Origin: Polyangiales bacterium
Lineage (GTDB): Bacteria; Myxococcota_A; Polyangia; Polyangiales; Ga0077539
Reading direction: 5' to 3'
DNA: 37,333 nt
Assembly (NCBI GenBank): GCA_046351535.1
Contig: JAXLYG010000005.1
Location: 1 to 37,333, forward strand
A program made the translations under genes and the position numbers. Below, piece by piece: positions 1,153 to 29,036 of this stretch (the first letter of the stretch is position 1; each line of letters starts with the position of its first letter). Under the pieces are notes generated by a model. It had not been told where the DNA came from, made no database searches, and worked only from the letters and a program-made list of their open reading frames with translations.

Positions 1153-2199
<1,047 letters not shown>

Positions 2200-2202
2200 C
2201 GC

Positions 2203-2604
2203 TCACGGAAGGCCAAACAGCGCGCGGCTCACGAGCCCGAGCGTGAGGCTGAGCGCGTTGGCCGCGAGCGACCACGCGAGCGCGCGACGCACGCCCCACG
2301 CGCGGAAGTACGCGGCCTCGACGAGCACCGCGAAGGTCTCTGCGACGACGGCCATCGCGACGTAGCGCGCCATCGGCGACGTGAGGGTCATCTGCGGCGC
2401 GCGGTCGATGACCGAGAGGTAGAGGCGCGTCCACCACGAGGGGATCACGAACCACACGACGGGGTGCGTGAGGAGGCTCGCGCCGAAGGCGATCGCGACG
2501 GTCGTGGGGAGAGAGTTCGCGATGCGCTGGCGTTCGAGGGCCCGCGCGTAGACGGGCACCTCGACGAGCTGCGTGAACGCGAAGGCGATCAGCCAGCGGT
2601 GCAA
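2203..2604 (-). CDS. Hypothetical small integral membrane protein (about 4 predicted TM helices)
   Basis: 133 aa, hydrophobic stretches (LIAFAFTQLV, VAIAFGASLLTHPVVWFVIPSWW, AMAVVAETFAVLV, LAANALSLTLGLV). High-GC native codon usage. Convergent with arsS and immediately downstream of the helicase gene. Confidence 0.4.
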   Translation of the reverse strand: MHRWLIAFAFTQLVEVPVYARALERQRIANSLPTTVAIAFGASLLTHPVVWFVIPSWWTRLYLSVIDRAPQMTLTSPMARYVAMAVVAETFAVLVEAAYFRAWGVRRALAWSLAANALSLTLGLVSRALFGLP

Positions 2605-2669
2605 CGGGGGGACCTAGGGTTTTCGTGCGAGACAAACTGCACCGCGGGCGACTGTCTCGAAGGAGGCAG

Positions 2670-5429
2670 TCATCGCCAACCACCGTGCTCGAAACAACTG
2701 CGCGCGGGTTCGAGGAGCGGGGGAAGCGTCGCATCGCAGGTCACGCCGAGGTACGTGGCCGCGCGCGTAAGGCCGACGAACAGATGCCTGTCGAAGAGGT
2801 CAGGCAGACGGGCGGCGAGCTTGTCGACTCCGACGAAGAACACCGCTTCGAACTCGAACCCCTTCACGTGCTGCACGTCGAACACGCGGATGTCGTCATC
2901 GGTGCCCTTCAGCGTGCCGTCGGGGCACGCCACGATGTTGTGGCTATGGTCCGCCAGCAGCGGGCGCAGCGAATCGACCAGCGCGTTCATCCGCGCGGGC
3001 TCATCGACGAAGATCGCGATCGGCGGCACGAACCCGAGGGCCCGCTCGATCTCGACGATGCGCTCGCACAGCCACCCGGCCAGTTCATCCTGAGCACAGT
3101 GCTCCGCCAGCAGCGGCGCGATGTTCACGTCCTCGGCGGCTCTCGGCCGTTCACTGACCGAGCATGGCGCGCCTCGAATCCGCGCGAGAACGTCGGCCAG
3201 CTCCGCGAGCCGCCGACTCTGTCGATACCCGATCTTGATGTCTCGCTTTTCGAAGTCATCGACGACCCAGTCCACGTCTCGCTCGTCTTGAACGCCGCAC
3301 GCGGTGATCCGCTGCTGGTAGTCGCCGCTGACGAAGAAAGATCGAAACGCGGGGTGGGCGAGTTCGCACATGCTCGCGAGCTCCAGCGGTGAGAAGTCCG
3401 TCGCCTCGTCGACAAGGACCTGCGCGACGTACTCGCGCCGGACCGCGTCGAGCAGCGCGACGTTGGTGCTCGCGGTGTCGCGCAGAAGGCGCCCGTTGGC
3501 ACGCGCCAGAAACCCGCGCGCGTTTCGAAGCATCATGACGATCAGCAGATCGACCTCGGCCGGCTCAAGGCGCTTCTGGTCGATCTGTCGTTGTGCGTTC
3601 GGATCGAACCATGCCCCACGCTCCCGGAGAGAGACACGGCGAAAGCGCTGATACGCCGACGGGACCCTCTCGATGAGATTCCTGTGGGGCTCCGCGAGGA
3701 AGCGAAGCTGTCGCAACGTCGCCAGACTCTGTCCCAGCGGGAGGAGCGCCTTCGCGTCGGGGATCCGCGACGCGATCTCGTCGAGCACCGTCTTGCTACG
3801 TCCTCCTTTCAACACGAGGCGCGCGTCGAAGGCGGTACGCGCGGCGTCGTCGACGGCTCGTCGAAGCGCGCGAAGCGCGACATCTCGCGCGAGGCGCTCG
3901 TCTTTGAGATCCAGCGCAGCGACGGGTTCGGCGCGCTCGTCCTGCTCGTCTTCTTCGTCCTCCTCGTCCCGCTCGAGCGCCGACCGCAGCGAGGCGGCGA
4001 TGCGCTCGAGCATCTTGCCATCCGCATCGAGAATCCGTCTCACGTGCTCGCTGCGAGCATCGCTGACGTCCTGCTCCACCTTCTTGGACACGACCGCGAT
4101 GTCCTCGCGGAGCTCGGCAAGATCGAACAGGCGATCGAACTCGGGCGTCGCGCTTTCGAGGCGACGAATCACACGCCGCGCGAGCGCCTGTACGTTCTGG
4201 TCAGGGTCCGACGACATCACCTTCAGGGTTTCGACGCAACGCGCCTCGGCGTCGCGACGGAACCAGTCCTGGAAGGCTTCAAACAGTCGGATCAGGCCCT
4301 TGCTCGTGGGGTCGGCGAGCAAAGGCGAGGCATCGTCCTGCCGGAAACCACTGCGCTGCCCCGACCGAAGAATCCCCAGAACGTTGCGCGCGAGCCGCCT
4401 TCGCTCGTCGCTCCACGTTCTCACTCGCTCATCCGACGCGGCAACGCCTTCGCGTCCAAACGCTTCTTTCAGATACACCTTGAGCGCGGGGGTCGGAGTG
4501 AACAGCGCCCAGCCGCTCGGAATGGTGGCCGCGTCGCTCACGAGCGAGCGCTCCTCGTCGCTCCACTCTTCGAATCGGCTCTTCTGAGCGATCCGCTTGA
4601 TGAGGGTCGTCGTCTTCCCCGTGCCCGGCGGACCGGTGAGCGCGAGGCGCCTGTTCAGCGGAAGCCGGAAGATCTCGTCCTGATACTTGTCGAGGATAGC
4701 CTGATCACGCAGCGCAACGGTCGCGATGACCCTGCGGCGGCGCTCGTTGCGACGCTCCTCCTCGCGTCGGGCGACCGCTTCGATTTCGCGCACAAGGTTA
4801 TCGACATCCTGCGTGCGATCGATCCGCCGGAGGAACTCGCGGAGCGATGAGAGACGCGCGGGATCTTCATTCTCGGACTCGAAGACGTTGTCCCGGCCAT
4901 CCCAGCGCCCCTCCTCCAAGCGAGGTGTGAGCCGCAAGCGCTCGAGGATCTTGAAGGTCCGCACCCCTCCCGGTGTAGCGATTTCTGCTGTATCCCCTGC
5001 TTCGAAGGATGCGAGACGTGCGAGCGGCGCGCCCCCTCGGTATCCGAGAAGTACGCCATCTGGGACCCCTCCAATATCAAGGACACCTCTTCCCCCTCGA
5101 GAGAAGTAATAAACGCTCTGCCAGCCGCTCGATTCGTTCTCGACGCAAATGCGCGCGATAAAGGGCTCCGCCTTCATCTGCCTAGCGGATTCGTAGGCCT
5201 CGGTCTTCAGGGCCAGCGCCTGGTTCGTGTACCAGCTCGGCTCCGCGTCCCCGAACCCGTTGCCCGAGACCGGCGACGCGACCATCAACCTCCCCCCCGG
5301 GCCGAGTTCCTCCGCTCGCTTCGCAGCAGCCTCGGCAACCGACTTCAAATTGTCGACCACCACGCGGGCGACGGCCATCACCGCCTCGTCTTTCCCCTCG
5401 CTCGGCCTCGTCATCTGCGCCTCTCCCAC
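2670..5429 (-). CDS. Superfamily 1 UvrD/helicase-IV (HelD)-like DNA helicase, 919 aa
   Basis: Walker A GPPGTGKTT. Motif II-like LVDEATDFSPLE. UvrD-like C-terminal signature VKGFEFEAVFFVGVD...LFVGLTRAATYL. Long N-terminal domain before the P-loop as in HelD/helicase IV, plus an acidic insert (ERDEEDEEDEQDE). Markedly lower GC than flanks. Confidence 0.8.
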   Translation of the reverse strand: MGEAQMTRPSEGKDEAVMAVARVVVDNLKSVAEAAAKRAEELGPGGRLMVASPVSGNGFGDAEPSWYTNQALALKTEAYESARQMKAEPFIARICVENESSGWQSVYYFSRGGRGVLDIGGVPDGVLLGYRGGAPLARLASFEAGDTAEIATPGGVRTFKILERLRLTPRLEEGRWDGRDNVFESENEDPARLSSLREFLRRIDRTQDVDNLVREIEAVARREEERRNERRRRVIATVALRDQAILDKYQDEIFRLPLNRRLALTGPPGTGKTTTLIKRIAQKSRFEEWSDEERSLVSDAATIPSGWALFTPTPALKVYLKEAFGREGVAASDERVRTWSDERRRLARNVLGILRSGQRSGFRQDDASPLLADPTSKGLIRLFEAFQDWFRRDAEARCVETLKVMSSDPDQNVQALARRVIRRLESATPEFDRLFDLAELREDIAVVSKKVEQDVSDARSEHVRRILDADGKMLERIAASLRSALERDEEDEEDEQDERAEPVAALDLKDERLARDVALRALRRAVDDAARTAFDARLVLKGGRSKTVLDEIASRIPDAKALLPLGQSLATLRQLRFLAEPHRNLIERVPSAYQRFRRVSLRERGAWFDPNAQRQIDQKRLEPAEVDLLIVMMLRNARGFLARANGRLLRDTASTNVALLDAVRREYVAQVLVDEATDFSPLELASMCELAHPAFRSFFVSGDYQQRITACGVQDERDVDWVVDDFEKRDIKIGYRQSRRLAELADVLARIRGAPCSVSERPRAAEDVNIAPLLAEHCAQDELAGWLCERIVEIERALGFVPPIAIFVDEPARMNALVDSLRPLLADHSHNIVACPDGTLKGTDDDIRVFDVQHVKGFEFEAVFFVGVDKLAARLPDLFDRHLFVGLTRAATYLGVTCDATLPPLLEPARSCFEHGGWR

Positions 5430-5513
5430 CCTGCGTTCGGTGCGTCTGTCGATGCAATCCCAGGCAGAGGTTCGCGCCCCCCGGCCGCGACGGTCAACCA
5501 GAACGGTGCGCGT

Positions 5514-6194
5514 TCACCCCCGCCCGGCAGCGATCTCGCGGCCGACGATGCCCCTCAACGTCGCTAGAATCGCCCACGCTTCGAGCCGTTCGCTGAACGC
5601 ACGCGACCAGCTCACGGACATCGAACGGCCAGGGGAGTTTTCGATCGGACACTCCACGGCGCGGAGGAACTTCCACGTGTCTCCGACGGTGAAGCACCCG
5701 AAGCGCTCAATCGGGTCGGTAGAGCGGCTGAGGGCCCGCTCTGCCTCGATCGACGTGAGCATCGCTGCGAGCAGTTGGGCGCGCGGATCCGTCGCGTCGA
5801 TGCCGCGCTTGGTCTCTACGACGAGCAGAAACGGCGGTGTCGCTTGGCCCCCGACAATGCCCTCCCGTGCGAGGACGCCATCGACGACGCCCACGAGATC
5901 GACGCCGCCGACCGTCGCACGTACGGGAACCTGCGACCAGGCGCGAACACGCTCCTCCTCCGCGAGCACGAGCAGGGGGTAGATGGCGCGCGCCCAGAGC
6001 GTCGACTCGTTCACGGTGACCGTATCGAAGTCGCGCAACCACCCGAGCACAACGGCGAGTTCCTGCGCGCGTGCCGTTGGAATGACGGTGTTCTCGAGCT
6101 TCTTCCAGAGCTCGGAATCATCGATGGGACCGACGAGATGGACGAGCGTCTCGAGCTGCGACTCATCGAACTGAGCGAGCGAGAACGTGGGCAT
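5514..6194 (-). CDS. PD-(D/E)xK superfamily nuclease (HsdR N-terminal/restriction-endonuclease-like fold), 226 aa
   Basis: Ordered E...D...ExK motif: LAEEE, VDLVGVVDGVLA, PFLLVVETKRG followed by helix QLLAAMLTS, characteristic of the HSDR_N-type nuclease core. Immediately upstream (same strand, 84-nt gap) of the helicase. Lower GC than the genome background. Confidence 0.6.
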   Translation of the reverse strand: MPTFSLAQFDESQLETLVHLVGPIDDSELWKKLENTVIPTARAQELAVVLGWLRDFDTVTVNESTLWARAIYPLLVLAEEERVRAWSQVPVRATVGGVDLVGVVDGVLAREGIVGGQATPPFLLVVETKRGIDATDPRAQLLAAMLTSIEAERALSRSTDPIERFGCFTVGDTWKFLRAVECPIENSPGRSMSVSWSRAFSERLEAWAILATLRGIVGREIAAGRG

Positions 6195-6247
6195 GGGTCT
6201 CTCTTCGGAAGATCTTCGCCCCTGTCAAGCGGGCGCCACCCGCAACG

Positions 6248-7912
6248 TCAGTCTGCGAGGGGGAGCGAGAAGGCGAGGTGGAAGGGAATCCCCGCGAGGG
6301 AGGCGTGCGCGGACACCTGGAGCACGACGCTGCGGTGCTCCTTCTCGGTGATGACCTGCGCCTCGAGCTTCGCGGCCTCGGCCGCCGCGGGGAAGAGGAA
6401 CACCGACGCGGCCTGCTCGAAGAGCAGCTTCACCTCGGGCTCCGGCGCCTTCGGCGGGAGCTGCGCCAGCACCCACCGCGCGAAGCGCACGATGCGACCC
6501 GTGAGGATCTGCGCGGGCAGCGGGACGAGGTCTTCGCCGTCGCGCGTCGTGGGGACGCTCTTGAGCACCAGGTTGCCCGAGTTGCGGCGGCTCCCGAAGC
6601 CGATGATGCCGAGACGCGCGAGCGTGCTCTGCGCCGTGGCCGAGTAGAACGCCTCCGTGGGCACGAGCATCCCCGCGTCGCGTCCCGTGGGCAGCTCCCA
6701 CGAACCCGGCGAGGGCATCGAGACGTTCTCGCCCACGACCTGCGCGTACGCGCCCGTGCGGTGGTAGCTCGCCGCGAGCATCGCCGCGAGCGCCATCACG
6801 GGCGAGCCGAAGACCACGCGCTTGCCCGTGCCGGTGCCCTCCTGACGGAGCACCACGCGGTTCGAAACCACCGAGATCCAGCGCGACGCCTCGTCGTGAC
6901 GAAACGCCTTCCACTCCGCGGGGAGGCCGCCGTCTTCGTCCTCGATGCGCGAGGCCACGGCGCCCGCCTCGGCGACGCCGAAGAAGCGCGGCGTGACCCC
7001 GAGCACCACGGGGATGTCATGGTCCGCGCCCACGTCGGCCCACGCCGCGATGCCCTCGATGTCATCGACGGGATCGTGGACGAAGATCGCGTCGGGGAGC
7101 TCGTCCTGCTCGGTCTCGCCGAGGTCGGCGCGCACGGCCTCGATGGCCTTCGCGGGCGCGACGTCGAGGAGGTCGACGGCCATGCCCGAACCCGACGGCG
7201 CCGTGTCGATGAGGAGCTTCAGCCCGCGCCACGCGCTCTCGAGCGCGGCGACGCCGGGCTCCTTGAGCACCTCGACGGCGGTGGCGAACACCTCGGCCTC
7301 GATGAGGTCGCGCGCGGCCCTTCCCGCGGAGGGGAGCACCACGGGCGCAGAGGGCTCACGCACGGCCTTGAGAAACGATCCGATCGCGCTCGACGCCGAG
7401 GGCTGCGCCGCGGGCGCAGGCGCCGCCGTGAGGAGCTCGTCGACGGAGATGCCAGCCGCCGCGGGCGCCGCGGGCGACGCGCTCGAAGCGGACGTGGGCG
7501 CGCTCGCGGGCTTTGAAACACCGAGCTTCGCGCGGAGGGCTGCGGAGAGCTTCCCCTCGCCGACGAGCTCGACGACCTTCGCGATGGCGCTCTCGGGGTC
7601 GGGGCGCTTCGTGGGGTCGTTCTGGGCCAGCGATGCCGCGAGGGCCGAGAGGTCCTTGAGGACCGCGACGCCCGCGACGACCTCGCTCGTCTGGAACGAT
7701 TTGAACGTCGGAAACGACACCTCGATCACGCGGGTCTTGTCACCGCCGAGGCGGTCTTCGACCGTCGCGCGCGCGCTCACCTTCGCCGCTTCGAGCGCCT
7801 GCACGAGGTCGCCCGCGCCGAGGCGCACGCGGCGCCCCGATGGAGACGCGCTGAACGCGCCCGCGACGAGCCACCGGACGCTGACCCCAGTCTTCTGTTC
7901 GCTTGCTTCCAT
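6248..7912 (-). CDS. tssC: Type VI secretion contractile sheath protein, apparent TssB-TssC (VipA-VipB) fusion
   Basis: Residues ~200-554 carry the TssC/VipB N-terminal signature ESAWRGLKLLID and a downstream PRFFGV segment. Residues ~1-130 resemble TssB (VRWLVAGAFS like LPLKVLVVGDF, and VSFPTFKSFQTSEVV like LSFKSLKDFSPEGVV). The two parts are joined by an Ala/Pro/Ser-rich linker. Confidence 0.55.
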   Translation of the reverse strand: MEASEQKTGVSVRWLVAGAFSASPSGRRVRLGAGDLVQALEAAKVSARATVEDRLGGDKTRVIEVSFPTFKSFQTSEVVAGVAVLKDLSALAASLAQNDPTKRPDPESAIAKVVELVGEGKLSAALRAKLGVSKPASAPTSASSASPAAPAAAGISVDELLTAAPAPAAQPSASSAIGSFLKAVREPSAPVVLPSAGRAARDLIEAEVFATAVEVLKEPGVAALESAWRGLKLLIDTAPSGSGMAVDLLDVAPAKAIEAVRADLGETEQDELPDAIFVHDPVDDIEGIAAWADVGADHDIPVVLGVTPRFFGVAEAGAVASRIEDEDGGLPAEWKAFRHDEASRWISVVSNRVVLRQEGTGTGKRVVFGSPVMALAAMLAASYHRTGAYAQVVGENVSMPSPGSWELPTGRDAGMLVPTEAFYSATAQSTLARLGIIGFGSRRNSGNLVLKSVPTTRDGEDLVPLPAQILTGRIVRFARWVLAQLPPKAPEPEVKLLFEQAASVFLFPAAAEAAKLEAQVITEKEHRSVVLQVSAHASLAGIPFHLAFSLPLAD

Positions 7913-7930: not shown

Positions 7931-9145
7931 TCAGAGGCCGCCGTCGATGTAGTCACCACGGAAGTCGTCACCGGCGTCGGGCACGTCTCCGTCGGGCGCA
8001 TCGGCCGACGCGTCCCTCGGCGCGCCCGCGTCACGGATGCGATCGACGCGGGCCTCCTGCGCGAGCACGCGGCTCCAGAGCGACGGATCGGACGAGACGA
8101 AGGTGTTGCCCCGCACGTACACCGCGCGGTCCTGGCCCGCGCGACGGTACGGACGCGGCGGGTCGTCGGGACGCGACGGGTCGCGGTCCTGCACCGTGAC
8201 GGTCTCACGCACCTGCACGCCGTCCTGGCGGACCTCGATGGAGGTCGCGAGCTGGAACGTCCGCCGCCACCCCGAGTCGAGGGTCACGTTCGCGTCCTTC
8301 TGGAACTCGAAGCGCGCCGGGCCGTAGCACCGCCCGCGCACGCTCCGGAGCGGCTCCTGAAGGAAGCGCGCCCCGCCCTGCGACGACGGCCGCAGGAGCA
8401 TCAGCCGCGCGGCGCGGCGACACGTCGAGCGGTCTTCATCGTTCTCGCAGATCTCGCCCTCGTGCACGAGCACGCGGCGCTCGCCCACCGTGTCGAGCCG
8501 CATGCGCGCCCGCTTGGGATAGTTGCGCACGGTGCCGATGGCGCGCACCACGACGCGCTGGTTGTCCGCGAACTCCGCGAGCGCGACGGGCCCCACGGCC
8601 TCGCCGTTCGAGAAGCGATCGGTGATCACCCACACGAGGCGCAGCGACGGCGCGATGCGCGTCACGATCACGTCGTTCTCGGTGATGGGCCGCTGCGGGA
8701 CCACGTCGCTCATGGGCACGCGGCAGCGCTCGCCCTCGGGCCGCATCTGGTTCACGGGCTCGTCGCAGTACTCCGAGCAGTTGCCGTTGAACTCGCGCCA
8801 CTCGACGGGCTGATTGGTGCAGTCGCGCGCGTTCGCCGCGGCGAAGCCCGGGGTGTAATCCCTCAGAAGAAGCCGCGCCCACTGATCGAAGCGCAGCGTG
8901 GGAACAGCCCCCGCGACGGCGCGCGGCCCCTCGATGGAGCACAGCGCCGGAATCGGGAGCGGCGCCTGCGGGCGCTGGTTGTTGTTGCTGCTGGAGCAGG
9001 CCCCGGCCAACGACGCGATGGCCAGCGCGGACGCCGCGCCGATCCCCATCAGTCGACCCCATGCGCTCGGATGCTGACTCATGGACCCTCTGTCTCTCCC
9101 CGTAGGAAATGCGAAACGAGACGCTCGCCGACGATCAGCCGGCAC
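7931..9145 (-). CDS. Secreted, probably lipid-anchored Cys-rich protein of unknown function in the T6SS operon (true start likely 9082 or 9049)
   Basis: Signal peptide MGIGAASALAIASLAGAC followed by Ser/Asn-rich linker. Multiple Cys. Acidic C-terminal tail (DAPDGDVPDAGDDF). Diverse, protein-like composition. The antisense ORF on the opposite strand is His/Arg-rich junk. Confidence 0.5.
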   Translation of the reverse strand: MPADRRRASRFAFPTGRDRGSMSQHPSAWGRLMGIGAASALAIASLAGACSSSNNNQRPQAPLPIPALCSIEGPRAVAGAVPTLRFDQWARLLLRDYTPGFAAANARDCTNQPVEWREFNGNCSEYCDEPVNQMRPEGERCRVPMSDVVPQRPITENDVIVTRIAPSLRLVWVITDRFSNGEAVGPVALAEFADNQRVVVRAIGTVRNYPKRARMRLDTVGERRVLVHEGEICENDEDRSTCRRAARLMLLRPSSQGGARFLQEPLRSVRGRCYGPARFEFQKDANVTLDSGWRRTFQLATSIEVRQDGVQVRETVTVQDRDPSRPDDPPRPYRRAGQDRAVYVRGNTFVSSDPSLWSRVLAQEARVDRIRDAGAPRDASADAPDGDVPDAGDDFRGDYIDGGL

Positions 9146-10610
9146 CTATACGCCGAGGCCCGGCGTCGGCGAAGTTTTCTCCGAGGGCCCTCGCGTAGGC
9201 CTTCGCGAAGACCTTTCCGAAGACCGCCGTGGTGAGCTCCCTGTCCTCCGAGAGGTCGTCGTGCTCCTTGAGGTACTGGCGCCAGAAGAGCCCCGTCTTG
9301 AAGGGCCACACCTTCCAGAACCCCTCGGATTTCTCGTCGGCCACGCGCGCGATTCGCTCGGGCGAGAGCCGCTCTGAGAGGAGCCTCCGAACGCCCTCCA
9401 TGAGCCCGCTGAGGAGGGCCACCTGGTGCGTCATGATCTCTGCGTACTGGCTCGTGAGGTTGTGCGCCCTCACCTGCGCGTCCTGCGCGTGCCAGTCGAG
9501 CAGGTACGCGAGCACGGCGCGCGGGTCGGTGGCCTCTTCGACGGGCGAGGGCTGCGCGCTCTTGCGCGACCCGCCGACCATCTCGGCCTCGAACTGCTCG
9601 TGCCCCTGACGCAGCCCCACGAACGCCGTCGCGAAGGCGTCGAGCGACGTGAGGATCCGCACGAGGAAGCCCTCCATCTCCTCGGGCGTCTGCGGCGGCG
9701 CCTGCGCCGGGAGGAGGGCCTGCGCGAGCCGCGCGATGAGCTGCGAGCCCGCGCCGCCGCCAACACCCGCGGGCAGCGCAACGCCCTGCGACTGCGCGAG
9801 CGCCTGCATCTGCGGCTCGTTCGCGGCGTCGGGAAACTGCTCCAGAAAGAGCTGCACGGCCGCGGGCACGAGATGCGGCGGCGTCTGCTGGAGCACGCCG
9901 TAGAGCGTGGCGTAGAGGTCGTTCCACGACTGGCGGTAGGCCGTGACGCGACCGCCGAGCGCGAGGATCTGCCCCCGCGTCGGACCGAGCTGCCCGGCGC
10001 CCGCCGCGGGCCTCGGAGCCTGCTGCGCCTGCGGCGCCTGCGGCGACGGACCGCCCGTGATCCCCGCGAGGATGGCGCTCCCGTCGATCATCATCGTCGA
10101 CGATCCGCCGTCGCCCAGGGAGGGATGTCCCCCCATGAGCCCCTCGGACATCATCGTGTGCTCGCCGACGCCGGGGTCACCGCCCGACGGCACCATGCTC
10201 AGCCGCTGCTGCGCGGCCATCGCCTCGGAGACGTGCGCGCGCGAGAACGTGATGCGCACCGCGCCGACGCGGAGGTCTTCGGTGCCCGTGAGCCCGACGG
10301 GCGCGTTCTTCTCGAGCCTCCGACCGTTGCAGGTCGTGCCGTTGGTCGACCCGAGGTCGTAGAAGGCCGCGCTGTTGTCGTCGAACTGCACCACCGCGTG
10401 CCACTGCGACACGAAGGGGCGCGCGATCGAGAGGTCGTTCAGGGGGTTGCGCCCGATGCGAACGGGCGACCGCGTGAACGTGTACGTGCGCGACGAGCCG
10501 TCGTCGAGGCTGTCTACACGTACAAGCAGGGCGAGCATCGGGCGACCGGAGGTCCTTTCGGGGAGCGAACGCGTCGTGTCGGGGCGCCCCAACGCGGTCG
10601 AGTTCGTCAC
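9135..10610 (-). CDS. tagH: T6SS-associated FHA-domain protein (TagH/Fha-like); true start possibly 10538
   Basis: N-terminal FHA domain (YTFTRSPVRIGRNPLNDLSI...GSTNGTTCNGRRL). Long Gln/Pro/Ala-rich linker and a C-terminal domain as in TagH. Sits between clpV and the sheath gene. Confidence 0.65.
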   Translation of the reverse strand: MTNSTALGRPDTTRSLPERTSGRPMLALLVRVDSLDDGSSRTYTFTRSPVRIGRNPLNDLSIARPFVSQWHAVVQFDDNSAAFYDLGSTNGTTCNGRRLEKNAPVGLTGTEDLRVGAVRITFSRAHVSEAMAAQQRLSMVPSGGDPGVGEHTMMSEGLMGGHPSLGDGGSSTMMIDGSAILAGITGGPSPQAPQAQQAPRPAAGAGQLGPTRGQILALGGRVTAYRQSWNDLYATLYGVLQQTPPHLVPAAVQLFLEQFPDAANEPQMQALAQSQGVALPAGVGGGAGSQLIARLAQALLPAQAPPQTPEEMEGFLVRILTSLDAFATAFVGLRQGHEQFEAEMVGGSRKSAQPSPVEEATDPRAVLAYLLDWHAQDAQVRAHNLTSQYAEIMTHQVALLSGLMEGVRRLLSERLSPERIARVADEKSEGFWKVWPFKTGLFWRQYLKEHDDLSEDRELTTAVFGKVFAKAYARALGENFADAGPRRIGAG

Positions 10611-10740
10611 CGCAGGGTCGCGACGTTATCAGGGTCGGGGCCGCGAATGCACGGGCTTTTCTCGGCGCCCGTGACGCCCTCTCCCGATCCTGCGAGAGAG
10701 GGCGTCGCTGGGGGTGTGGCTCTTCGAGGCGGCGCCTCGA

Positions 10741-13422
10741 CTACGCCGCGGGGGCCTCGACCTCGCGGAACTCGATGCGCCATCCGCCGTCGGGCGAGAG
10801 CGACACGTCGAGGTGCTTGGGCAGCGGGCCCTCGGCCATGCGCTCGAGGATCACGCGCGACACCGCGGGGATCAGCGAGCCTCGCATGATGTGCTCGACG
10901 TTGCGCGCGCCGGTCTCGGCCTCGGTGCAGCGGCGCGTGATCTCGTCGATGAGCTCCGCGGCGAAGTGCGTCTCGACGCGGTGGCTCGTGTAGAGGCGCT
11001 TGCCGAGGCCCTTGAGGCGCATCTCGGTGATCTCGCGCATGATCGTCCGCGGGATGGGCGCGTAGGGGATGATCGTCATGCGCGCGAGGAGCGCGGGCTT
11101 GAAGTGCTTCGAGAGCACCGGGCGGATCTGGGCGACGACCTCGTCGACGGGGGGCACGTCGTCGCGGTCGTAGAGCTTCATGATCGCGTCGGTGGCGAGG
11201 TTCGACGTGAGGATGATGATCGTGTTGCGGAAGTTGATCTGACGACCCTCTCCGTCGGCGCACGAGCCCTTGTCGAACACCTGGTAGAACAGGTTCATGA
11301 TGTTGACGTCGGCCTTCTCGCACTCGTCGAGGAGCACCACGGAGTACGGGCGCTGACGCACCGCCTCGGTGAGCACGCCGCCCTCGCCGTAGCCCACGTA
11401 GCCCGCCGACGCGCCGATGAGCCTCGACAGCGCCGCCTGCTCCTGGAACTCCGACATGTTGATCACGGTCATGAAGCGCTCGCCGCCGTACATGGCCTCG
11501 GCGAGGGCGATGGCCGTCTCGGTCTTGCCGACGCCCGACGGGCCCACGAAGAGCAGCACGCCCACGGGCTGGTTCGGGTTCGACACGCCCGCCTGCGACG
11601 CGCGGATGGTCTCCGCGACGATCTTCATGGCGTGGTCCTGGCCGCGCACGCGCTCGCGGAGCTTGTCCTCGAGGGTGAGCAGCGTGGCGACGTCGTCCTT
11701 CTGCATCTTGCTGACGGGGATGCCCGTCCAGTTCTCGATGATGCGCGCGACGGTGTCGGGGTCGACGTCGGCGGAGACGAGCGCGGGCTTGCTCTTGACC
11801 TTGTCGTAGGCCTCGATCGAGTCGGTGAGGGCCTTGCGCGCGGCCTCGGCCTCCTCCGCGGGCGTGTCCTTCGTGAGCGCGTGCACCCTGGCGCGCGCCT
11901 CTCGCACGAGCTTCACGGCGTCGCGCTCGGCGTTCCACTTCGCGGTGAGCTCGTCGATCGACGACTTCGTGCGGTCGATCGTCGTGAGGAGCTTCTCGTA
12001 GTGCTCCTGATCGATCTTGAAGCCCGACGACACGTCGCGGTCGAGGGCCTCCTTCTCGCGCAGCGACGCGGCGAGCGTCACGTCGAGGTTCACGAGGTCC
12101 TCGGGGCGCGCGTCGAGGTTGATCTTCACGCGCGCGGTGGCCGTGTCGAGCAGGTCGACGGCCTTGTCGGGCAGGAGCCTCCCCGAGATGAAGCGGTTCG
12201 AGAGCTTCACCGCCGCCACGATGGCCTCATCGCGGATCGTGATGTTGTGCGCCTTCTCGAACACGGGCCTCAGCCCGCGGAGCATGAGAATGGCGTTCTC
12301 CTCCGAGGGCTCGTCGACGGCCACGGGCTGAAAGCGCCGCGCGAGGGCCGCGTCTTTCTCGAAGTACTTCTTGTACTCCGACCACGTCGTCGCCGCGATG
12401 GTGCGGAGCTCGCCGCGCGCGAGCGCCGGCTTGAGGATGTTCGCCGCGTCGGAGCCGCCCTGCTGACCGCCCGCGCCGATGATGGTGTGCGCCTCGTCGA
12501 TGAAGAGCACGATGGGCTTGGGCGAGCCCTTCACCTCGGAGATGACGTTCTTCATGCGGTTTTCGAACTCGCCCTTGACGCCCGCGCCCGCTTGAAGCGC
12601 GCCGAGGTCGAGGTTGAGGAGCTCGACGTTCTTGAGGTGCTCGGGCACGTTGCCCGCCACGATCTCGAGCGCGAGGCCCTCGGCGAGGGCGCTCTTGCCG
12701 GTGCCCGGATCGCCCACGATGATCGGGTTGTTCTTGCGGCGCCGCGAGAGGATGTCGATGAGCTGACGGATCTCGGTGTGGCGCCCGAAGATGGGGTCGA
12801 TCTTGCCGTCGCGGGCCTTCTGCGTGAGGTTCTCGGTGAAGCGCTGGAGGTTCTCGGCGCCCGCCGTGGGACCGCCCTGCGCGCCGGGGACGCCCGCGCC
12901 GCTGGCCGACTGCGTCGCGCCCGACGAGGCCACGCCGACCTCGATGGACTCCTTCGAGGGCGCCACGATGTCGAGGAACTCGCGCTTGAGCGCGTCGCGC
13001 GGGATCGCTTCGAGCTCGGGGAAGGTCTCCGCCGAGTAGCGCCCCGGGTTGTTGATGAACTGCCACACGAGCGCGCCCGTGCGGAGCTTCGTCGCGTCGG
13101 TCGAGAGCGAGGCGAGCGTCCAGGCGTCTTCGCAGAGCTGAAAGATGCTCTCCGAGAGCACGGGCTTGCCCGCGTTGCCCGTGCGCAGACGGCTCAGGGC
13201 CTTCTGGATGCGCCCCACGAGCCGCGTGCGGTCCTGCTCGAACTGGTGGAGGATCCGCGCGAGGTCGCCGTCCTCCTTCTCCGCGAGCACGAGGAGCACG
13301 TGCTCGACCATCACCTCGTAGCCCTGCGAGCTGACCACCTTCGCGGCGGCGCCGTTGAGGGCCTCCTTGCAGGTGGGGGTGAGCCGATCGATGAGGACCT
13401 TCCTGTCGACGAGCAGCGCCAT
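10741..13422 (-). CDS. clpV: T6SS AAA+ ATPase ClpV (TssH)
   Basis: 893 aa. ClpV-type N-domain. Two AAA+ modules with Walker A GDPGTGKSA and GPSGVGKTE, Walker B FIDEAH and VLLDECEKA, and a sensor region. Lies downstream of tssF-tssG as in canonical T6SS loci. Confidence 0.9.
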   Translation of the reverse strand: MALLVDRKVLIDRLTPTCKEALNGAAAKVVSSQGYEVMVEHVLLVLAEKEDGDLARILHQFEQDRTRLVGRIQKALSRLRTGNAGKPVLSESIFQLCEDAWTLASLSTDATKLRTGALVWQFINNPGRYSAETFPELEAIPRDALKREFLDIVAPSKESIEVGVASSGATQSASGAGVPGAQGGPTAGAENLQRFTENLTQKARDGKIDPIFGRHTEIRQLIDILSRRRKNNPIIVGDPGTGKSALAEGLALEIVAGNVPEHLKNVELLNLDLGALQAGAGVKGEFENRMKNVISEVKGSPKPIVLFIDEAHTIIGAGGQQGGSDAANILKPALARGELRTIAATTWSEYKKYFEKDAALARRFQPVAVDEPSEENAILMLRGLRPVFEKAHNITIRDEAIVAAVKLSNRFISGRLLPDKAVDLLDTATARVKINLDARPEDLVNLDVTLAASLREKEALDRDVSSGFKIDQEHYEKLLTTIDRTKSSIDELTAKWNAERDAVKLVREARARVHALTKDTPAEEAEAARKALTDSIEAYDKVKSKPALVSADVDPDTVARIIENWTGIPVSKMQKDDVATLLTLEDKLRERVRGQDHAMKIVAETIRASQAGVSNPNQPVGVLLFVGPSGVGKTETAIALAEAMYGGERFMTVINMSEFQEQAALSRLIGASAGYVGYGEGGVLTEAVRQRPYSVVLLDECEKADVNIMNLFYQVFDKGSCADGEGRQINFRNTIIILTSNLATDAIMKLYDRDDVPPVDEVVAQIRPVLSKHFKPALLARMTIIPYAPIPRTIMREITEMRLKGLGKRLYTSHRVETHFAAELIDEITRRCTEAETGARNVEHIMRGSLIPAVSRVILERMAEGPLPKHLDVSLSPDGGWRIEFREVEAPAA

Positions 13423-13467
13423 GGTCGTGCTCTCTCCTTTCGCGGTGTAACTGTGGGAGGGGGGACG

Positions 13468-14586
13468 TTAGGGTGTCTTCGCCTCGGAGCTTGCGGGCTC
13501 CGACGCGGTGGAAGATGTCGCTTGCGGGACCTGCACGATCATGTGCACCTCGCGGTCTGCACCGACGGTGAGCCACGAGTCGAAGCCGAGGCGTGATGCA
13601 TCTTTGGGAGAAGACCCGAGGCGCATCGACGGGGCCTCGCCGGGCGCGAGGATGAGCTCCACGTCGAACTCCAGCGGGTCGCGGACGTAGAGCGTCACCA
13701 CCTCGCGGAGCAGCTCCAGCCCGGCTTTGCCCGGCTGGAGCTCTTCGAAGGCCTTGCGGCGCAGGGGTCCGAGGATCACCCGGAACTTCCCCCCGCGGTC
13801 GAAGACCTTGCGGCCCACGGTGGCGTCTTCGCCGAGCGTGGTGTTCGCCACGCCGAGCCGCAGGAGCTGCCGCTCCTCGATGGACACCCAGCGCCCCACG
13901 AACTGATCGACGGAGACGGTGGCGCCGTTGAGGGTCTTCGCGAGCACGTCGGAGAGCACCGCGACGAGGCCCTCGGAGGTGCGCGCCCTGCGCGCCATGA
14001 GCGGCGCCAGACGCAGGAGGTGAGGGATGCTGAGGCTCGTCGGGAGGCGATCGCCGAAGCCGTCGAAGCCCGCGAGGCACAGCGACCGGCGAGACCACGG
14101 GTCCCGCGAGTCCGAGGTGTAGTCCGTGAGGAACGAGTACTTCGTGTGCGCGCGGTAGAAGAGCGACAGCACGCGGTGGTGAAACAGGTCGAGGAACTCG
14201 CGCTGCGCGGGGTGATCGGCGTCCTCGTGGATGACGTCTTCGACGAAGTACGTCGGCAGCGGCGAGACCGTGCCCGTGAGCCCGAGAAAGGTCGTCGTGA
14301 CCTCGTAGTAGGGCTCCTCGTTGGCGCCGTGCGCGACGTCGTCGACCTTGCGCTTGCGCACGACGATGTTGGTCACGTCGCTGGCGCTGAAGGCGAGCGA
14401 CGGGTCGTGCCTGAAGCGAATGGCCTCGCGGCCCACGGGCCCCGCGTCGCCCACGCGCACGGCGTTGGGCGTCGCGCGCTCGAGCAGCTCGACGGCGCGA
14501 TAGAACCCGACCCGCTGCGGCGACGCGAGGAGCGCCGTCAGGCTCGGCGTCACAGAATCGTCTGTCTTCCGCTCTTCGCCGTCCAC
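13468..14586 (-). CDS. tssG: T6SS baseplate subunit TssG (ImpH/VasB family)
   Basis: 372 aa. N-terminal GFYRAVELLER motif typical of TssG. Overlaps the 3' end of tssF by 37 nt. Confidence 0.75.
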   Translation of the reverse strand: MDGEERKTDDSVTPSLTALLASPQRVGFYRAVELLERATPNAVRVGDAGPVGREAIRFRHDPSLAFSASDVTNIVVRKRKVDDVAHGANEEPYYEVTTTFLGLTGTVSPLPTYFVEDVIHEDADHPAQREFLDLFHHRVLSLFYRAHTKYSFLTDYTSDSRDPWSRRSLCLAGFDGFGDRLPTSLSIPHLLRLAPLMARRARTSEGLVAVLSDVLAKTLNGATVSVDQFVGRWVSIEERQLLRLGVANTTLGEDATVGRKVFDRGGKFRVILGPLRRKAFEELQPGKAGLELLREVVTLYVRDPLEFDVELILAPGEAPSMRLGSSPKDASRLGFDSWLTVGADREVHMIVQVPQATSSTASEPASSEAKTP

Positions 14587-16301
14587 TGGTACTCCGCCTG
14601 GGAGGGGTGCGCCTTGGCCTTGAGTTCGCTGAACGTGTTGATGCCCGCGTGCGCCGCGAGCACCTCATCGACCACCGAGGCGAAGAGGTAGAGGTCCCCT
14701 TCGCCCGCGAAGCCCTGCTCGTCGAGCTCGATCGTGGTGCCCACGCCGCGCACGGGGACGCCCTTCACGAGGCGCTCGACGGGCCGCGTGCCGACGCCGC
14801 GGATGGCCTCGATGCGCAGGCGATTCGCGCGCCCCGCCTGACGGTCGACGGCCGCTTGAAAGTTGTAGAGGTCGAGCACCGAGCGCAGCGCCTCGGCGTC
14901 GGCGAGGGAGCGGTAGTTGAGCGCGAGGTGCGACACGAGGCGCCAGTGCAGCGACTTGCCGAAGGGCGGGCGCACGGGCACCGACACGGGGGTGATGTTC
15001 TTGAAGCGCGCGAAGGGCGGAGAGCCCGGCGCGGGCACCGAGATGTCACCGAGGCGCAGCTGCGCGGGCAGCGCGCGGTTGGTCACCGTCACCTCGATGG
15101 AGAGGGTCTCCTCCACGGGGTTGTTGGGCACGTCCCTCGGCGTGTGGATCGAGAGCCACGTGTCGATGCCGTCGTCGAGGGGCGAGGTCGAGCGCCGCAC
15201 GCGGTAGTACGCGGGGACGTCCTCGGGCGTGAGCGCGTGCAGGAAGTCGAAGAAGGGCCGGTACTCCTTGCGGTCGGTGCGGCCCGCTTGCAGGCCCGTC
15301 ACGCGGTCGATGGAGTACAGCTCCATGTGCCGCGGATCGATCTCCGACGCGCGGAGGAGGTACTCGTGCGCGTTGGGGTCGACCTTGATGGGGTCGGCGT
15401 CCGTCGCGAAGAGGTTGATCACCGGCGAGCAGTGCAGCTTGATGACGTTCTTGTCGATCTGCGCGGGCAGCGGCGGCGGTCGCTCGAAGTTGAGCACGAT
15501 CTCGAAGCGGTCTTCGGCGCGGGCCGCGAAGGCGTCGAGGCCGCGGATGTCGAAGAAGTAGAACTTCGACGGGAGCGTGAAATACTCCTGCAGGAGCCGG
15601 TATCCGCCGGGGGCGAACTTGGGCCACGGGAGGAGCGCGCACTCGGGGTCGAAGCCCACCGAGCGGATCGCGCGCTTGCCGATGTCGACGCCCTTGGCGC
15701 CCGCCGAGAGCCCCCGCACGCTGACGTTGCGGCAGTAGTGCGAGAGCCAGAGAAAGAGCATCGACGCCGTGCCCGGGTCGCCGTGCAGAAAGATGCGGAT
15801 CCCGTCGGGGTGAAAGACCGCGCTGCGACCGGCTTCATGCGTCTGGAGCTGGATGCGGATGGCGGGCTGCGACGGCTTCGACTGGTCGAGGATGACGTCT
15901 TGAAGCGTGACCGGCAGGAGGTCGACGTCGGCCGAGGTGCGGAAGCGGCACGCGGTCCCCTCGGCGGGCGAGGCCGCGAGCTCGGTGCCGCGCGCGATCT
16001 TCTGGCGCGTGCGGAGGGCGCCCGCGACGGGGGTGAACTCCACGATCGAGCACGCGGGCAGCGTCCGCAGGTAGTGCGGGAGCAGCAGGTCGCAGAGCGT
16101 GTGGATGATCTCGGGGACGTCGTCGTCGAGGCGCTCCCGCACGCGCGCCGTGAGGAACGAGAAGCCTTCCAGCAGGCGCTCGACGTCGGGGTCACCGCTG
16201 CGCTCCGCGAGCAGGCCGGCGACGGCGGGGTAGGCCCTGCCGAACTCGCGCCCGAGCTCGCGGAGGTACGTGAGCTCGCTCTGGTAGTACTTGCTGAACA
16301 C
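14550..16301 (-). CDS. tssF: T6SS baseplate subunit TssF (ImpG/VasA family)
   Basis: 583 aa. N-terminus MFSKYYQSELTYLRELGREFGRAYPAVAGLL matches the TssF consensus (YY..EL.YLRELG.EFA..HP). Confidence 0.8.
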   Translation of the reverse strand: MFSKYYQSELTYLRELGREFGRAYPAVAGLLAERSGDPDVERLLEGFSFLTARVRERLDDDVPEIIHTLCDLLLPHYLRTLPACSIVEFTPVAGALRTRQKIARGTELAASPAEGTACRFRTSADVDLLPVTLQDVILDQSKPSQPAIRIQLQTHEAGRSAVFHPDGIRIFLHGDPGTASMLFLWLSHYCRNVSVRGLSAGAKGVDIGKRAIRSVGFDPECALLPWPKFAPGGYRLLQEYFTLPSKFYFFDIRGLDAFAARAEDRFEIVLNFERPPPLPAQIDKNVIKLHCSPVINLFATDADPIKVDPNAHEYLLRASEIDPRHMELYSIDRVTGLQAGRTDRKEYRPFFDFLHALTPEDVPAYYRVRRSTSPLDDGIDTWLSIHTPRDVPNNPVEETLSIEVTVTNRALPAQLRLGDISVPAPGSPPFARFKNITPVSVPVRPPFGKSLHWRLVSHLALNYRSLADAEALRSVLDLYNFQAAVDRQAGRANRLRIEAIRGVGTRPVERLVKGVPVRGVGTTIELDEQGFAGEGDLYLFASVVDEVLAAHAGINTFSELKAKAHPSQAEYQWTAKSGRQTIL

Positions 16302-16449: not shown

Positions 16450-17208
16450 ATGACGGCGATGACCCTTCGAGCGTGGCTCCGCGAGGCGCCCTTCACCCTG
16501 GCGATGTCGTCGGGCTTCTTCGGCTTCTACGCCCACGCGGGCGCCCTCACGGCCCTCGCCGCCGCGGGCTTCACCCCCTCGGGCTACGCGGGCTCCTCCG
16601 CGGGCGCCCTGGTCACGGGGCTCAGGGCCGGAGGGTGCTCCCTCGACGAGCTGCGTCAGACCCTCTCGTCGCTTCGAAGAGAAGACTTCTGGGACCCCGG
16701 ACCCGGTCTGGGCCTCCTCCGCGGGCGGCGCTTTCGCGAGCGCCTCGAGGCGATGGTTCGGCACCGAACGATCGAGAGCTGCCCGACGCCCTACACGGCC
16801 TCGGTCTTCGAGCTCTCCGCGCGCCGCACGCGCAGCCTCCACCGCGGATCGCTCACGACGGCCATCCACGCCTCGTGCGCGGTGCCGGGGCTCTTTCACC
16901 CCGTGCGCATCGAAGGCTCGCTCTACGCCGACGGAGGCATCGCCGATCGCCCCGGGATCCACGGCCTCCACTACGGGAGCCGCGTGCTGCACCACCACCT
17001 CGCGTCGCGCTCTCCGTGGCGCCGCGAGGGGAGCGCCTCGACGCTCCCGCCGAAGCGGAACAACCTCGTGGCGGTCTCGATCGAGGGGATCACGCGCCTC
17101 AACCCCTTCGCCCTCGACCGCGGCATGAAGGCCTTTCGCGAGGGTGAAGACGGCATGCGCCGCGCCCTCGACCTGCCCGTGCACGACGGCCTCGTGTCGG
17201 TGCGATAG
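16450..17208 (+). CDS. Patatin-like phospholipase (PNPLA family)
   Basis: GxSxG nucleophile motif (GSSAG) and catalytic Asp in a DGG motif (YADGGIAD). The N-terminal oxyanion region is SSGFFGFYAHAG, a degenerate form of GGGxRG. Confidence 0.7.
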   Translation: MTAMTLRAWLREAPFTLAMSSGFFGFYAHAGALTALAAAGFTPSGYAGSSAGALVTGLRAGGCSLDELRQTLSSLRREDFWDPGPGLGLLRGRRFRERLEAMVRHRTIESCPTPYTASVFELSARRTRSLHRGSLTTAIHASCAVPGLFHPVRIEGSLYADGGIADRPGIHGLHYGSRVLHHHLASRSPWRREGSASTLPPKRNNLVAVSIEGITRLNPFALDRGMKAFREGEDGMRRALDLPVHDGLVSVR

Positions 17209-20581: not shown

Positions 20582-21199
20582 TCACCCGCCGTCGAGACGC
20601 TGCGCTTCGAGCGTCGTGATCGTCAGCGAGTACCCCATCCAGCCGTTGCGAAACTCCACCACGCGCGGGGGCGTGTCGCCCTCCATGCCGCCCTCGTAGC
20701 GCACGTCGATGGTGCTCGCGGGAACGCCGTCGAGCCGTCGGAAGTGACGCTCCATGAGCCTCCCCGCGCGCCACACCTCGCGGATCTCTTCACCATCGCG
20801 CGTGCCTCTGCGCTCACCGTCGACGGCGGGCGCGGGGCCGAGCCCGATGAAGAGCGTGCGGTGGATGTCGAGCAGCATGTACCGCGGCGGAAAGGGGAGC
20901 TCGCCCGGCATGTGCGACGTGAAGCTCACCTCGGTTCCGCGCTGCTGGAGCACGAACGCGCGCGTGCCGAAGGGCGTGAGGCCGAGGAGCGTGAGCGTGT
21001 CTCCCTGCTTCTGGAGCACGGCGTCGAAGGACACGTCGCGCCCCGGATAGTGCGCCTCGACGCGCTGCCGAAACATGAACGCGCCGCGGATCTCCGACGT
21101 GGGGAGGAGCGTCCCCGGATGCGTCACGACAGGCATCGCGGGCGGCCGTCGCGAGGCGCACGCGAGCGCGAGACACGCGGCGAGGATCGATCGCTTCAC
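20582..21199 (-). CDS. DUF3261-like outer-membrane lipoprotein (aryl-polyene-cluster-associated), start at GTG 21199 overlapping the MMPL stop (GTGA)
   Basis: Internal start VKRSILAACLALAC gives lipobox ILAAC. About 205 aa mature protein. The upstream part of the listed ORF is junk overlapping the MMPL gene. Sits in a conserved MMPL/LolA neighbourhood. Confidence 0.5.
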   Translation of the reverse strand: MKRSILAACLALACASRRPPAMPVVTHPGTLLPTSEIRGAFMFRQRVEAHYPGRDVSFDAVLQKQGDTLTLLGLTPFGTRAFVLQQRGTEVSFTSHMPGELPFPPRYMLLDIHRTLFIGLGPAPAVDGERRGTRDGEEIREVWRAGRLMERHFRRLDGVPASTIDVRYEGGMEGDTPPRVVEFRNGWMGYSLTITTLEAQRLDGG

Positions 21200-23562: not shown

Positions 23563-23577
23563 CGGGGCGTCGGGGTC

Positions 23578-24303
23578 TCAGGGCGAGAGTCGAAAGACGC
23601 GCGCGGCCTCGTCGGGCGCGTATCTGCGCGCGGCGTCGACCTCGGTGAAGCGCGTCGAGGTCTCGTCTCCGCTCGTCTCTCGCAGGGTCATCGCGTCGAG
23701 GATCACGCCCGCGCCTCGGAGCTCGATGTCGCGGAACACGCGCTGAATGGTGGCCACGCGAGGACGGAGCGTGAGCGTCCACGCCTCGGGACGCTGCGCG
23801 TCGGGGACGCGAAAATCGATCTCGTAGCTCCGCTCCAGGGCCGCACGATCGCCCGCGACGAGCGCGAGAAAGCTGTCGACGAACTGCCGCACCACGGGCG
23901 TCGCGTTCATGTCGATCGACTGCTCTCCGCGGCCATCCCCGAAGCGGAGGTGAGAGCCCTCGATGAGCACCGTCGAGGGCGCGGGCGTCGCGGTGCGACG
24001 CACGAGGCGAGAGGGCGGCGCGTAGTCGAGGGTCCCTTCGCTCACGAGCGGCGCGGCGAGGAGCTGCACGCGCTTCTCTTCGCGAAACCGCGCGTGGAGA
24101 CCGGGCACCGCGGCGAAGCGGCGGAGCAGCGCGTCGAGCGTCACGGGCGCGGCCACGGGCGCCGCGGGCGCGACGGGCGCGGTCACGGGCGTGCGGGTCG
24201 GACGGTTGCGCGGAGGGCGACGCGGCTGCGACGACGCGAGCGCCGAGAGGGCCACGAGCGACAGCGCGAGCGCGCTACGCGACGATGCGGGAACGGATGG
24301 CAT
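23578..24303 (-). CDS. LolA-like outer-membrane lipoprotein carrier family protein (ApeL-like)
   Basis: Signal peptide MPSVPASSRSALALSLVALSALASS. About 240 aa. Position between the MMPL exporter and thioesterase matches APE-type clusters. Confidence 0.55.
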   Translation of the reverse strand: MPSVPASSRSALALSLVALSALASSQPRRPPRNRPTRTPVTAPVAPAAPVAAPVTLDALLRRFAAVPGLHARFREEKRVQLLAAPLVSEGTLDYAPPSRLVRRTATPAPSTVLIEGSHLRFGDGRGEQSIDMNATPVVRQFVDSFLALVAGDRAALERSYEIDFRVPDAQRPEAWTLTLRPRVATIQRVFRDIELRGAGVILDAMTLRETSGDETSTRFTEVDAARRYAPDEAARVFRLSP

Positions 24304-27305: not shown

Positions 27306-27325
27306 CTGCGTAGGGCGGAGTCCCT

Positions 27326-29030: not shown

Positions 29031-29036
29031 GGCGGA

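Follow-up and report, generated by a model that had tools for sequence, protein, structure and literature searches.

Several described defence systems combine a nuclease with a motor ATPase: Gabija pairs the OLD nuclease GajA with the UvrD-like helicase GajB, Hachiman joins HamA (DUF1837) to the superfamily 2 (SF2) helicase HamB, and in Nhi the two activities are fused. HelD is a superfamily 1 (SF1) motor that recycles RNA polymerase, binding the enzyme and releasing nucleic acids. It has a domain plan of secondary-channel arm, clamp arm, and motor; a Trp-cage motif of the N-terminal domain, DWR[A/S]P (DWRX[A/S]P in class III), defines all HelD classes, and myxobacteria carry several HelD genes (PMC8655204). 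Bacteriophage exclusion (BREX) loci can embed accessory genes, as exemplified by BrxU/GmrSD between brxC and pglX on pEFER (PMC8565348), and auxiliary effectors have been catalogued (PMC12839542). Here, we analysed a window of 37,333 nt (the whole stretch of DNA under study: Polyangiales bacterium, GCA_046351535.1, contig JAXLYG010000005.1, positions 1-37,333 of the forward strand), in which a gene for a 226-aa protein of PD-(D/E)xK nuclease fold lies beside a gene for a 919-aa helicase-like protein. With a probability of about 0.6, the locus is read as a small horizontally acquired islet (2605-6247) with two independently distributed genes, not as a conserved nuclease-helicase system. The features concerned are the following:

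2605-6247: compositionally foreign islet of ~3.6 kb with both genes inside, recognized by GC content, GC content at third codon positions (GC3), and codon-usage distance
5514-6194, minus strand: nuclease-fold gene, 226 aa, ATG start
5430-5513, minus strand: intergenic spacer of 84 nt (99 nt if the helicase-like gene starts at the ATG at 5414)
2670-5429, minus strand: helicase-like gene, 919 aa, GTG start

Distribution of the two genes

The nuclease was sampled as 80 loci with 10 kb flanks, being the best 80 of 237 genomic matches (one genome per species), and 69 of these had at least 3 kb of sequence downstream. The helicase sample comprised 86 loci, i.e., the best 80 of at least 506 metagenomic matches and six obtained via the nearest homologues and the Enterobacteriaceae homologue, with at least 1 kb upstream in 73; gene calls in the fetched loci were longest open reading frame (ORF) calls. 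The window helicase was detected by tblastn in none of the 80 nuclease loci, and neither tblastn nor the hidden Markov model (HMM) of the nuclease family detected the nuclease in any of the 86 helicase loci. The closest nuclease relatives with readable context (74%, 72%, and 71% identity) were solitary, with no helicase nearby, and the same was true of a Sorangium homologue (54% identity, partial match). Moreover, no nuclease-helicase fusion occurred among the best 150 of the 442 representatives of the nuclease family, the longest of which (434 aa) is too short to hold the helicase. Orthologues of a conserved two-gene nuclease-helicase defence system would be neighbours across genomes, and these are not. 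The nuclease and the helicase are not a conserved system, and the proposal of the first-pass annotation that the two genes form a module failed in both directions (0/80 and 0/86). In addition, the nearest relatives are 84% identical for the nuclease and 56% identical for the helicase, so the two genes have different histories.

Comparison with the described nuclease-helicase systems also set the locus apart. Gabija shares with it a UvrD-type SF1 ATPase beside a nuclease gene, whereas the window partner has no OLD/TOPRIM match, the helicase carries a coiled coil and a ~300-aa helical arm, and the pair is not conserved; matches to the GajB model were partial only, with the best one (6e-6, 23 bits) covering residues 661-748, which hold generic motor motifs. 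Hachiman and Nhi share the logic of a motor joined to a PD-(D/E)xK-type nuclease, whereas the window helicase belongs to SF1, its gene and that of the nuclease are unfused, and no conserved pairing was found; the HamA, HamB, and Nhi models of PADLOC gave no match to the window proteins at E<=1. Weak generic matches apart, no other system modelled in PADLOC v2 was matched by either protein. The two genes are distinct from Gabija, Hachiman, and Nhi, as had been proposed from the sequence in the first place.

Composition of the islet

Both ORFs were recovered with the coordinates, strand, and 84-nt gap of the first-pass annotation, and the motifs quoted there (Walker A, VKGFEFEAVF, and the ordered E/D/ExK residues) were all present. 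The NCBI call for an identical helicase-like protein is 914 aa long, matching the ATG at 5414. The GC content was 0.653 for the helicase-like gene and 0.659 for the nuclease gene, compared with 0.685-0.722 for the neighbouring genes and 0.709 for the window, and the GC3 values were 0.79 and 0.81, respectively, compared with 0.89-0.98 for the flanking genes. The codon-usage distance to the pooled flanking genes was 0.151 for the helicase-like gene (920 codons) and 0.215 for the nuclease gene (227 codons), while native genes of more than 350 codons had distances of 0.044-0.10 and three shorter ones had distances of 0.096-0.150. The lower GC content assumed earlier was thus borne out by calculation, together with deviant GC3 and codon usage, but the deviation is milder than had been estimated (0.65-0.66 against 0.685-0.722 in the flanking genes). 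The islet is bounded by a native 133-aa ORF (GC3 0.95) and by the sheath-like gene of a type VI secretion system (T6SS; 6248-7912, GC3 0.93). No tRNA genes were present in the window, and no convincing direct or inverted repeats flanked the islet. A consensus scan of 2100-6400 gave no promoter- or terminator-like sites, and the nuclease and helicase-like genes may or may not be co-transcribed.

A stand-alone PD-(D/E)xK nuclease family

The 226-aa protein adopts a single-domain PD-(D/E)xK fold in its AlphaFold (AF2) model, which has a predicted local distance difference test score (pLDDT) of 93.1 and a predicted template modelling score (pTM) of 0.91; an N-terminal helical part (~residues 1-77) precedes an alpha-beta-beta-beta-alpha-beta core. 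The candidate catalytic residues are E79, D105, E127, K129, and Q140, with E127-T-K129 as the motif. In an alignment with 42 relatives (29-83% identity), E79, G106, E127, and K129 were invariant, and D105 and Q140 were at least 90% conserved. The core fold and the ordered E...D...ExK signature, which together characterize the PD-(D/E)xK superfamily, are both found in this protein, and its first description as an HsdR-N-like member is a fair one; the closest known kin listed for it are Uma2/DUF820 and the N-terminal nuclease domains of HsdR and type IIG enzymes. No Pfam or NCBIfam family was assigned to the 226-aa protein, while a CRISPR-associated PD_DExK profile in PADLOC matched it at 3.4e-7. 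Membership in Uma2/DUF820 was rejected, as the protein did not match PF05685 at the level required, and identity with DUF4391, the partner that is usually encoded just before the helicase, was likewise rejected (BLASTP E 0.30, HMM E 0.14, hhalign probability 0.2%). Judged by fold and motif only, the 226-aa protein is most likely a Mg2+-dependent DNA endonuclease that works without a partner.

The family comprises 111 clusters when grouped at 90% identity. A search of 1.84 billion representatives, grouped at 50% identity, gave 442 matches, and the best 150 of these 442 were nearly all single-domain proteins of ~220 aa or fragments. The nearest relatives of the window nuclease share 84-69% identity with it, and the 84%-identical one (P0002) is a paralogue from the same metagenome-assembled genome (MAG). 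The 79 best loci belong to Polyangiales, cyanobacteria, Poribacteria, Chloroflexota, Thiotrichaceae, a Trueperaceae MAG, and an Armatimonas MAG, and several copies per genome are common among them. All-against-all clustering of the neighbouring genes revealed no conserved neighbour family around the nuclease. Elsewhere, the nuclease genes are compositionally native (median GC difference -0.007).

Multicopy paralogues of the nuclease were seen in the large-genome lineages Thiotrichaceae, Poribacteria, Chloroflexota, cyanobacteria, and Polyangiales, with tandem arrays or diverged paralogues at ~8586-15322 of locus L032 (Thiotrichaceae MAG S06.Bin195) and in the locus pairs L029/L053, L015/L023, and L054/L058. 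Uma2/DUF820 genes show a similar multicopy habit, and in locus L169 the 74%-identical relative has a Uma2 gene at a distance of 2.2 kb. The intragenomic paralogues share mostly 65-73% DNA identity (88% and 95% in two pairs), and the similarity ends at the ends of the coding sequences. A recently active mobile element is ruled out by this divergence and by the confinement of identity to the coding sequence.

A HelD-like SF1 ATPase

The 919-aa protein carries Walker A (GPPGTGKTT) at residues 266-274 and VKGFEFEAVF at 855-864, and Pfam assigned UvrD_C_2 to it (1.3e-10), with a borderline match to the UvrD N-terminal domain. Walker A, Walker B, and motifs III, IV, and VI were invariant in 34 relatives, the positions concerned including D674-E675 (Walker B), G702-D703..Q706-R707, Y735-R736-Q737, and R889. 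According to the AF2 model (pLDDT 84.3, with low confidence at the tip of the arm), the protein would consist of an N-terminal antiparallel coiled coil (11-87, with helices 11-42 and 66-87), a beta domain (92-195), a long linker helix (208-254), a domain 1A in two parts (261-350 and 658-750) with an all-helical arm of ~300 aa (376-650) inserted between them, and a domain 2A (~770-919, ~170 aa with AF2) without a 2B insert. The two arms are the least conserved parts, with column homogeneities of 0.23 and 0.31 compared with 0.55-0.60 for the motor.

HelD ranked first in a profile search of PDB sequences with the helicase family (3.5e-12 for Mycobacterium smegmatis and 1.3e-9 for Bacillus subtilis), and the top seven Foldseek matches of the model were all HelD, in line with the initial description of the large protein as a HelD/UvrD-like SF1 helicase. 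Like HelD/HelR (B. subtilis 6WVK and M. smegmatis 6YXU), the window protein has a UvrD-type SF1 1A/2A core with the conserved motifs, and its model predicts an N-terminal antiparallel coiled-coil arm, a second, clamp-like arm that splits 1A, and no 2B. In contrast, the DWR motif is absent from the 919-aa sequence, its place being taken by an invariant W176-D177 in the beta domain (34 sequences), and the NCBIfam HelD model (HelD_BACSU) scored 18.2 bits against a cut-off of 419. Because DWR[A/S]P is missing and this score is far under the cut-off, the protein is named HelD-like and not filed as HelD, despite its predicted fold and nearest neighbours. It is also ~150-200 aa longer than HelD, and its family is spread across Proteobacteria, Myxococcota, and others, in BREX and restriction-modification (R-M) operons and on plasmids.

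The helicase family comprises more than 1,221 protein clusters, among which the nearest relative of the window copy is 56% identical. No model for it exists in PADLOC v2, where only weak matches to GajB and NERD+UvrD were obtained, and literature on DUF4391, HelD-like defence, and BREX with UvrD contained no description that could be found. The family is mentioned neither in PMC8565348 nor in PMC12839542, the latter of which contains "UvrD" 0 times and "SF1" once. The window helicase is therefore a member of a HelD-like SF1 ATPase family that is resident in defence islands, was not described in the literature found, and has no model in PADLOC v2.

Genomic contexts of the helicase family

Type 1 BREX contexts were found at 26 of the 86 helicase loci, with the order BrxR(WYL), 170-aa ORF, BrxA, BrxB, BrxC, helicase, PglX, PglZ, and often a GmrSD gene. 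Where both brxC and pglX were present, the helicase stood in the slot between them (e.g., L103, L107, L115, and L121-L124), the same slot as that of BrxU, the type IV enzyme on pEFER, and these loci often carry BrxR together with a GmrSD gene. Type 1 BREX loci with the helicase in this slot also include L125, L129, L133, L153, L158, and L168; in all the loci named, the helicase lies at ~8001-10500 where the flanks are complete. At L090 the helicase follows brxL rather than standing between brxC and pglX. BrxT of pEFER was also considered as a counterpart of the helicase and rejected, as it is a small hypothetical protein upstream of brxA. Unlike the BREX accessory genes, the window copy has no BREX gene nearby, and the helicase is not a nuclease effector.

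A second arrangement, found at 21 of the 86 loci, consists of genes for BrxR(WYL), SNF2 (~1,094 aa), DUF4391 (~233 aa), the helicase (~900 aa), type III Mod, and type III Res, and in many cases GmrSD genes come next. It was observed, for example, at 3163-15842 of L001 and in L101, L113, L119, L130, L142, L150, L154, and L157, and the same cluster is carried by the IncFII plasmid p3045-3 of Raoultella (L175, 3916-16759). DNA matching the Enterobacteriaceae copy of the helicase was present in 52 of 5,426 complete Escherichia coli genomes, although the match covered 80% or more of the gene in only 8, and in the E. coli records listed for the helicase matches a DUF4391 gene is annotated next door. 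PADLOC v2 has no DUF4391 model, and no defence-related description of DUF4391 was found in the literature. The cluster was also compared with MANTIS/Gao_RL and this identity was rejected, as the components named for it, MtsA (AAA+ ATPase), MtsB, MtsC (methyltransferase), and MtsD (helicase-nuclease), do not match.

In other contexts, the closest relative (56%) has HsdM-HsdS-HsdR and a 142-aa ORF before it and a resolvase after it, and further copies follow BrxL or a DUF1156 methyltransferase with HEPN-DUF499; DUF499/DUF1156 systems are regarded as "BREX-related" systems (PMC12839542). Neighbours also include a TOTE NERD-UvrD protein, a DUF6079 ATPase, an Abi_C protein, and WYL regulators. On a Vibrio plasmid the helicase lies near a type I R-M system, and on the Aminobacter plasmid pANY103c (L177, 1877-9676) the genes upstream of it encode a WYL regulator, a 1,123-aa RecB-like nuclease of the TM0106 type, and a 316-aa PDDEXK_4-like protein. 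On the conjugative plasmid p1 of Caulobacter sp. FWC26 (L174, 8995-11703), a solitary helicase has a type IV coupling protein on one side and a MobQ relaxase on the other, which suggests that the gene may be able to function, or at least travel, alone. A 53%-identical relative at 4554-7286 of L086 has a GC content of 0.56 (GC3 0.59) in a contig of 0.69, and this composition is a strong sign of recent transfer of the helicase family. As for a phage origin, tblastn found neither protein in 50,697 phage records, and the sole PHROG matches (best 1.8e-8), which span only the Walker A stretch, were rejected as support for it.

These contexts show a mobile helicase family that is strongly associated with defence islands. 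The link to defence suggested by the first-pass annotation thus holds for the helicase family in other genomes, and is not supported for the pair, which is not conserved as a system. Around the window copy, the arrangements of BREX or type III R-M are missing; its flanks carry an ArsS-type gene and T6SS genes, and the ORFs scanned across the window yielded no methyltransferase.

Interpretation of the locus

In the favoured reading of an acquired islet, co-location in one acquired patch would explain the adjacency of the helicase and the nuclease. The nuclease would be an autonomous member of the stand-alone ~220-aa PD-(D/E)xK family, and the window helicase would be an orphan copy without its usual partners, derived from a mobile family embedded in methylation-based immunity operons. 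Because it lacks a 2B domain and bears two long, fast-evolving arms on a conserved motor, the helicase is expected to act in a HelD-like manner, using ATP and the two variable arms to pry open, strip, or remodel a protein-nucleic acid complex, which could be RNA polymerase or a DNA-bound restriction/modification complex; processive unwinding would not be expected of it. Judging from the company its family keeps, the helicase is probably an immunity-associated motor that would contribute to immunity either as an accessory or on its own.

Several points weigh against this reading. The two genes run in the same direction with only 84 nt between them, and their composition deviates in the same way, as would be expected of a jointly acquired operon, and the borders of the islet could not be defined. 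As the samples were the best 80 per scan, a rare lineage-specific pairing could have been missed. The PD-(D/E)xK partner on the Aminobacter plasmid differs from the window nuclease and thus makes the recruitment of a nuclease by the helicase not absurd. Furthermore, the immunity role of the helicase family is suggested by guilt by association only, and the HelD-like mechanism is an analogy to enzymes whose DWR motif is absent here.

Some of these points would equally suit a genuine lineage-specific two-gene defence system, in which the HelD-like motor would sense or process foreign nucleic acid or a stalled complex and the PD-(D/E)xK protein would be the effector nuclease, as in Hachiman, Gabija, and Nhi. 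Besides the shared orientation, narrow gap, common foreign composition, and the Aminobacter copy with another PD-(D/E)xK gene upstream, such a system would accord with the intact catalytic motifs of both proteins, with the residence of the helicase family in defence islands, and with the nuclease-bearing partners (type III Res, HsdR, and GmrSD) in its usual operons. It is set against the lack of co-occurrence in 80 and 86 loci and near the closest nuclease relatives with readable context, the lack of fusions among the best 150 of 442 representatives, the different depths of divergence (84% versus 56%), and a nuclease family that is solitary and autonomous everywhere else. A functional pairing of the nuclease and the helicase is thus possible but unsupported, and a two-gene defence system of this kind looks unlikely.

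It is also improbable that the locus combines a housekeeping-type HelD paralogue that recycles stalled RNA polymerase, like class III HelD in myxobacteria, with an unrelated repair or recombination nuclease, neither having a role in immunity. HelD is the best solved match by both sequence and Foldseek, myxobacteria have several HelD genes (PMC8655204), and neither a methyltransferase nor any other defence gene was found among the window ORFs scanned. These observations are countered by the missing DWR[A/S]P motif and the NCBIfam HelD score (18 versus 419 bits), the foreign composition of the helicase gene, the fact that BREX or type III R-M operons house over half of the family members in the sample, and the presence of the helicase in only ~1% of complete E. 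coli genomes. Finally, a T6SS cargo composed of a nuclease effector and an accessory protein expressed with the upstream sheath gene, as the first-pass annotation had also considered, is very improbable: the nuclease gene does lie 53 nt downstream of the VipB/TssC-like gene on the same strand, but no T6SS gene occurs near the 80 other nuclease loci or the helicase loci (nor any arsS homologue near the nuclease relatives), no PAAR, VgrG, or Rhs fusion is present, and the composition of the islet is unlike that of the T6SS genes.

With the islet reading preferred, the window pair is probably not a system, and experimental backing would be needed before it is treated further as a candidate nuclease-helicase defence system. 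It is the family that offers a useful lead, namely the HelD-like ATPase in the brxC-pglX slot of type 1 BREX and in the BrxR-SNF2-DUF4391-X-Mod-Res cluster, and its association with defence lends itself to direct tests in E. coli strains with the cluster. If the HelD-like action is true, methylation-based immunity would be linked to the eviction of polymerases or other DNA-bound machines. A likeness to RapA, a factor that recycles RNA polymerase, has been noted for BrxHII of type 3 BREX (PMC12839542), and eviction of polymerase by the HelD-like ATPase, if true, would parallel it. A bolder proposal, which we regard as doubtful, is that the HelD-like ATPase represents a large undescribed class of immunity motors integrated into BREX, type III/SNF2-DUF4391, type I, and DUF499 systems, with HelD-style arms for stripping or remodelling RNA polymerase or DNA-bound restriction/modification complexes on foreign DNA, and that the window orphan has been newly coupled to a solitary nuclease as a minimal two-gene defence system.

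Flanking genes in the window

The islet lies between an ArsS-type locus and T6SS genes, as had been noted at the outset. To its left are an N-acetyltransferase-type gene, a CMD-family gene, a radical-SAM/DUF3641 (ArsS-type) gene, and then the native 133-aa ORF (2203-2604, minus strand), and to its right, on the same strand, are the VipB/TssC-like gene, a 404-aa protein of unknown family (7931-9145, minus strand), an FHA-T6SS protein, ClpV, TssG, and TssF. The 133-aa ORF, which flanks the islet, and the 404-aa ORF, which flanks the sheath-like gene, are native in composition; neither has a Pfam match, and the 133-aa ORF has no PHROG match. The sheath-like protein matches VipB in part only (residues 278-456, E 1.8e-16), and because of this partial match the T6SS of this window may be of a divergent type.

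The other ORFs scanned belong to patatin, MMPL, LolA, acyltransferase, halogenase, carrier-protein, and Ser/Thr kinase families, with three lacking a match. A patatin-like phospholipase gene (16450-17208, plus strand) follows the T6SS block. Genes of the MMPL, LolA-like, lipid A-type acyltransferase, Trp-halogenase-like flavoenzyme, and carrier-protein families are located at 21196-29853 (minus strand) and may constitute a lipid or aryl-polyene-type biosynthetic cluster, and a Ser/Thr kinase gene is situated at 33028-34404 (minus strand).

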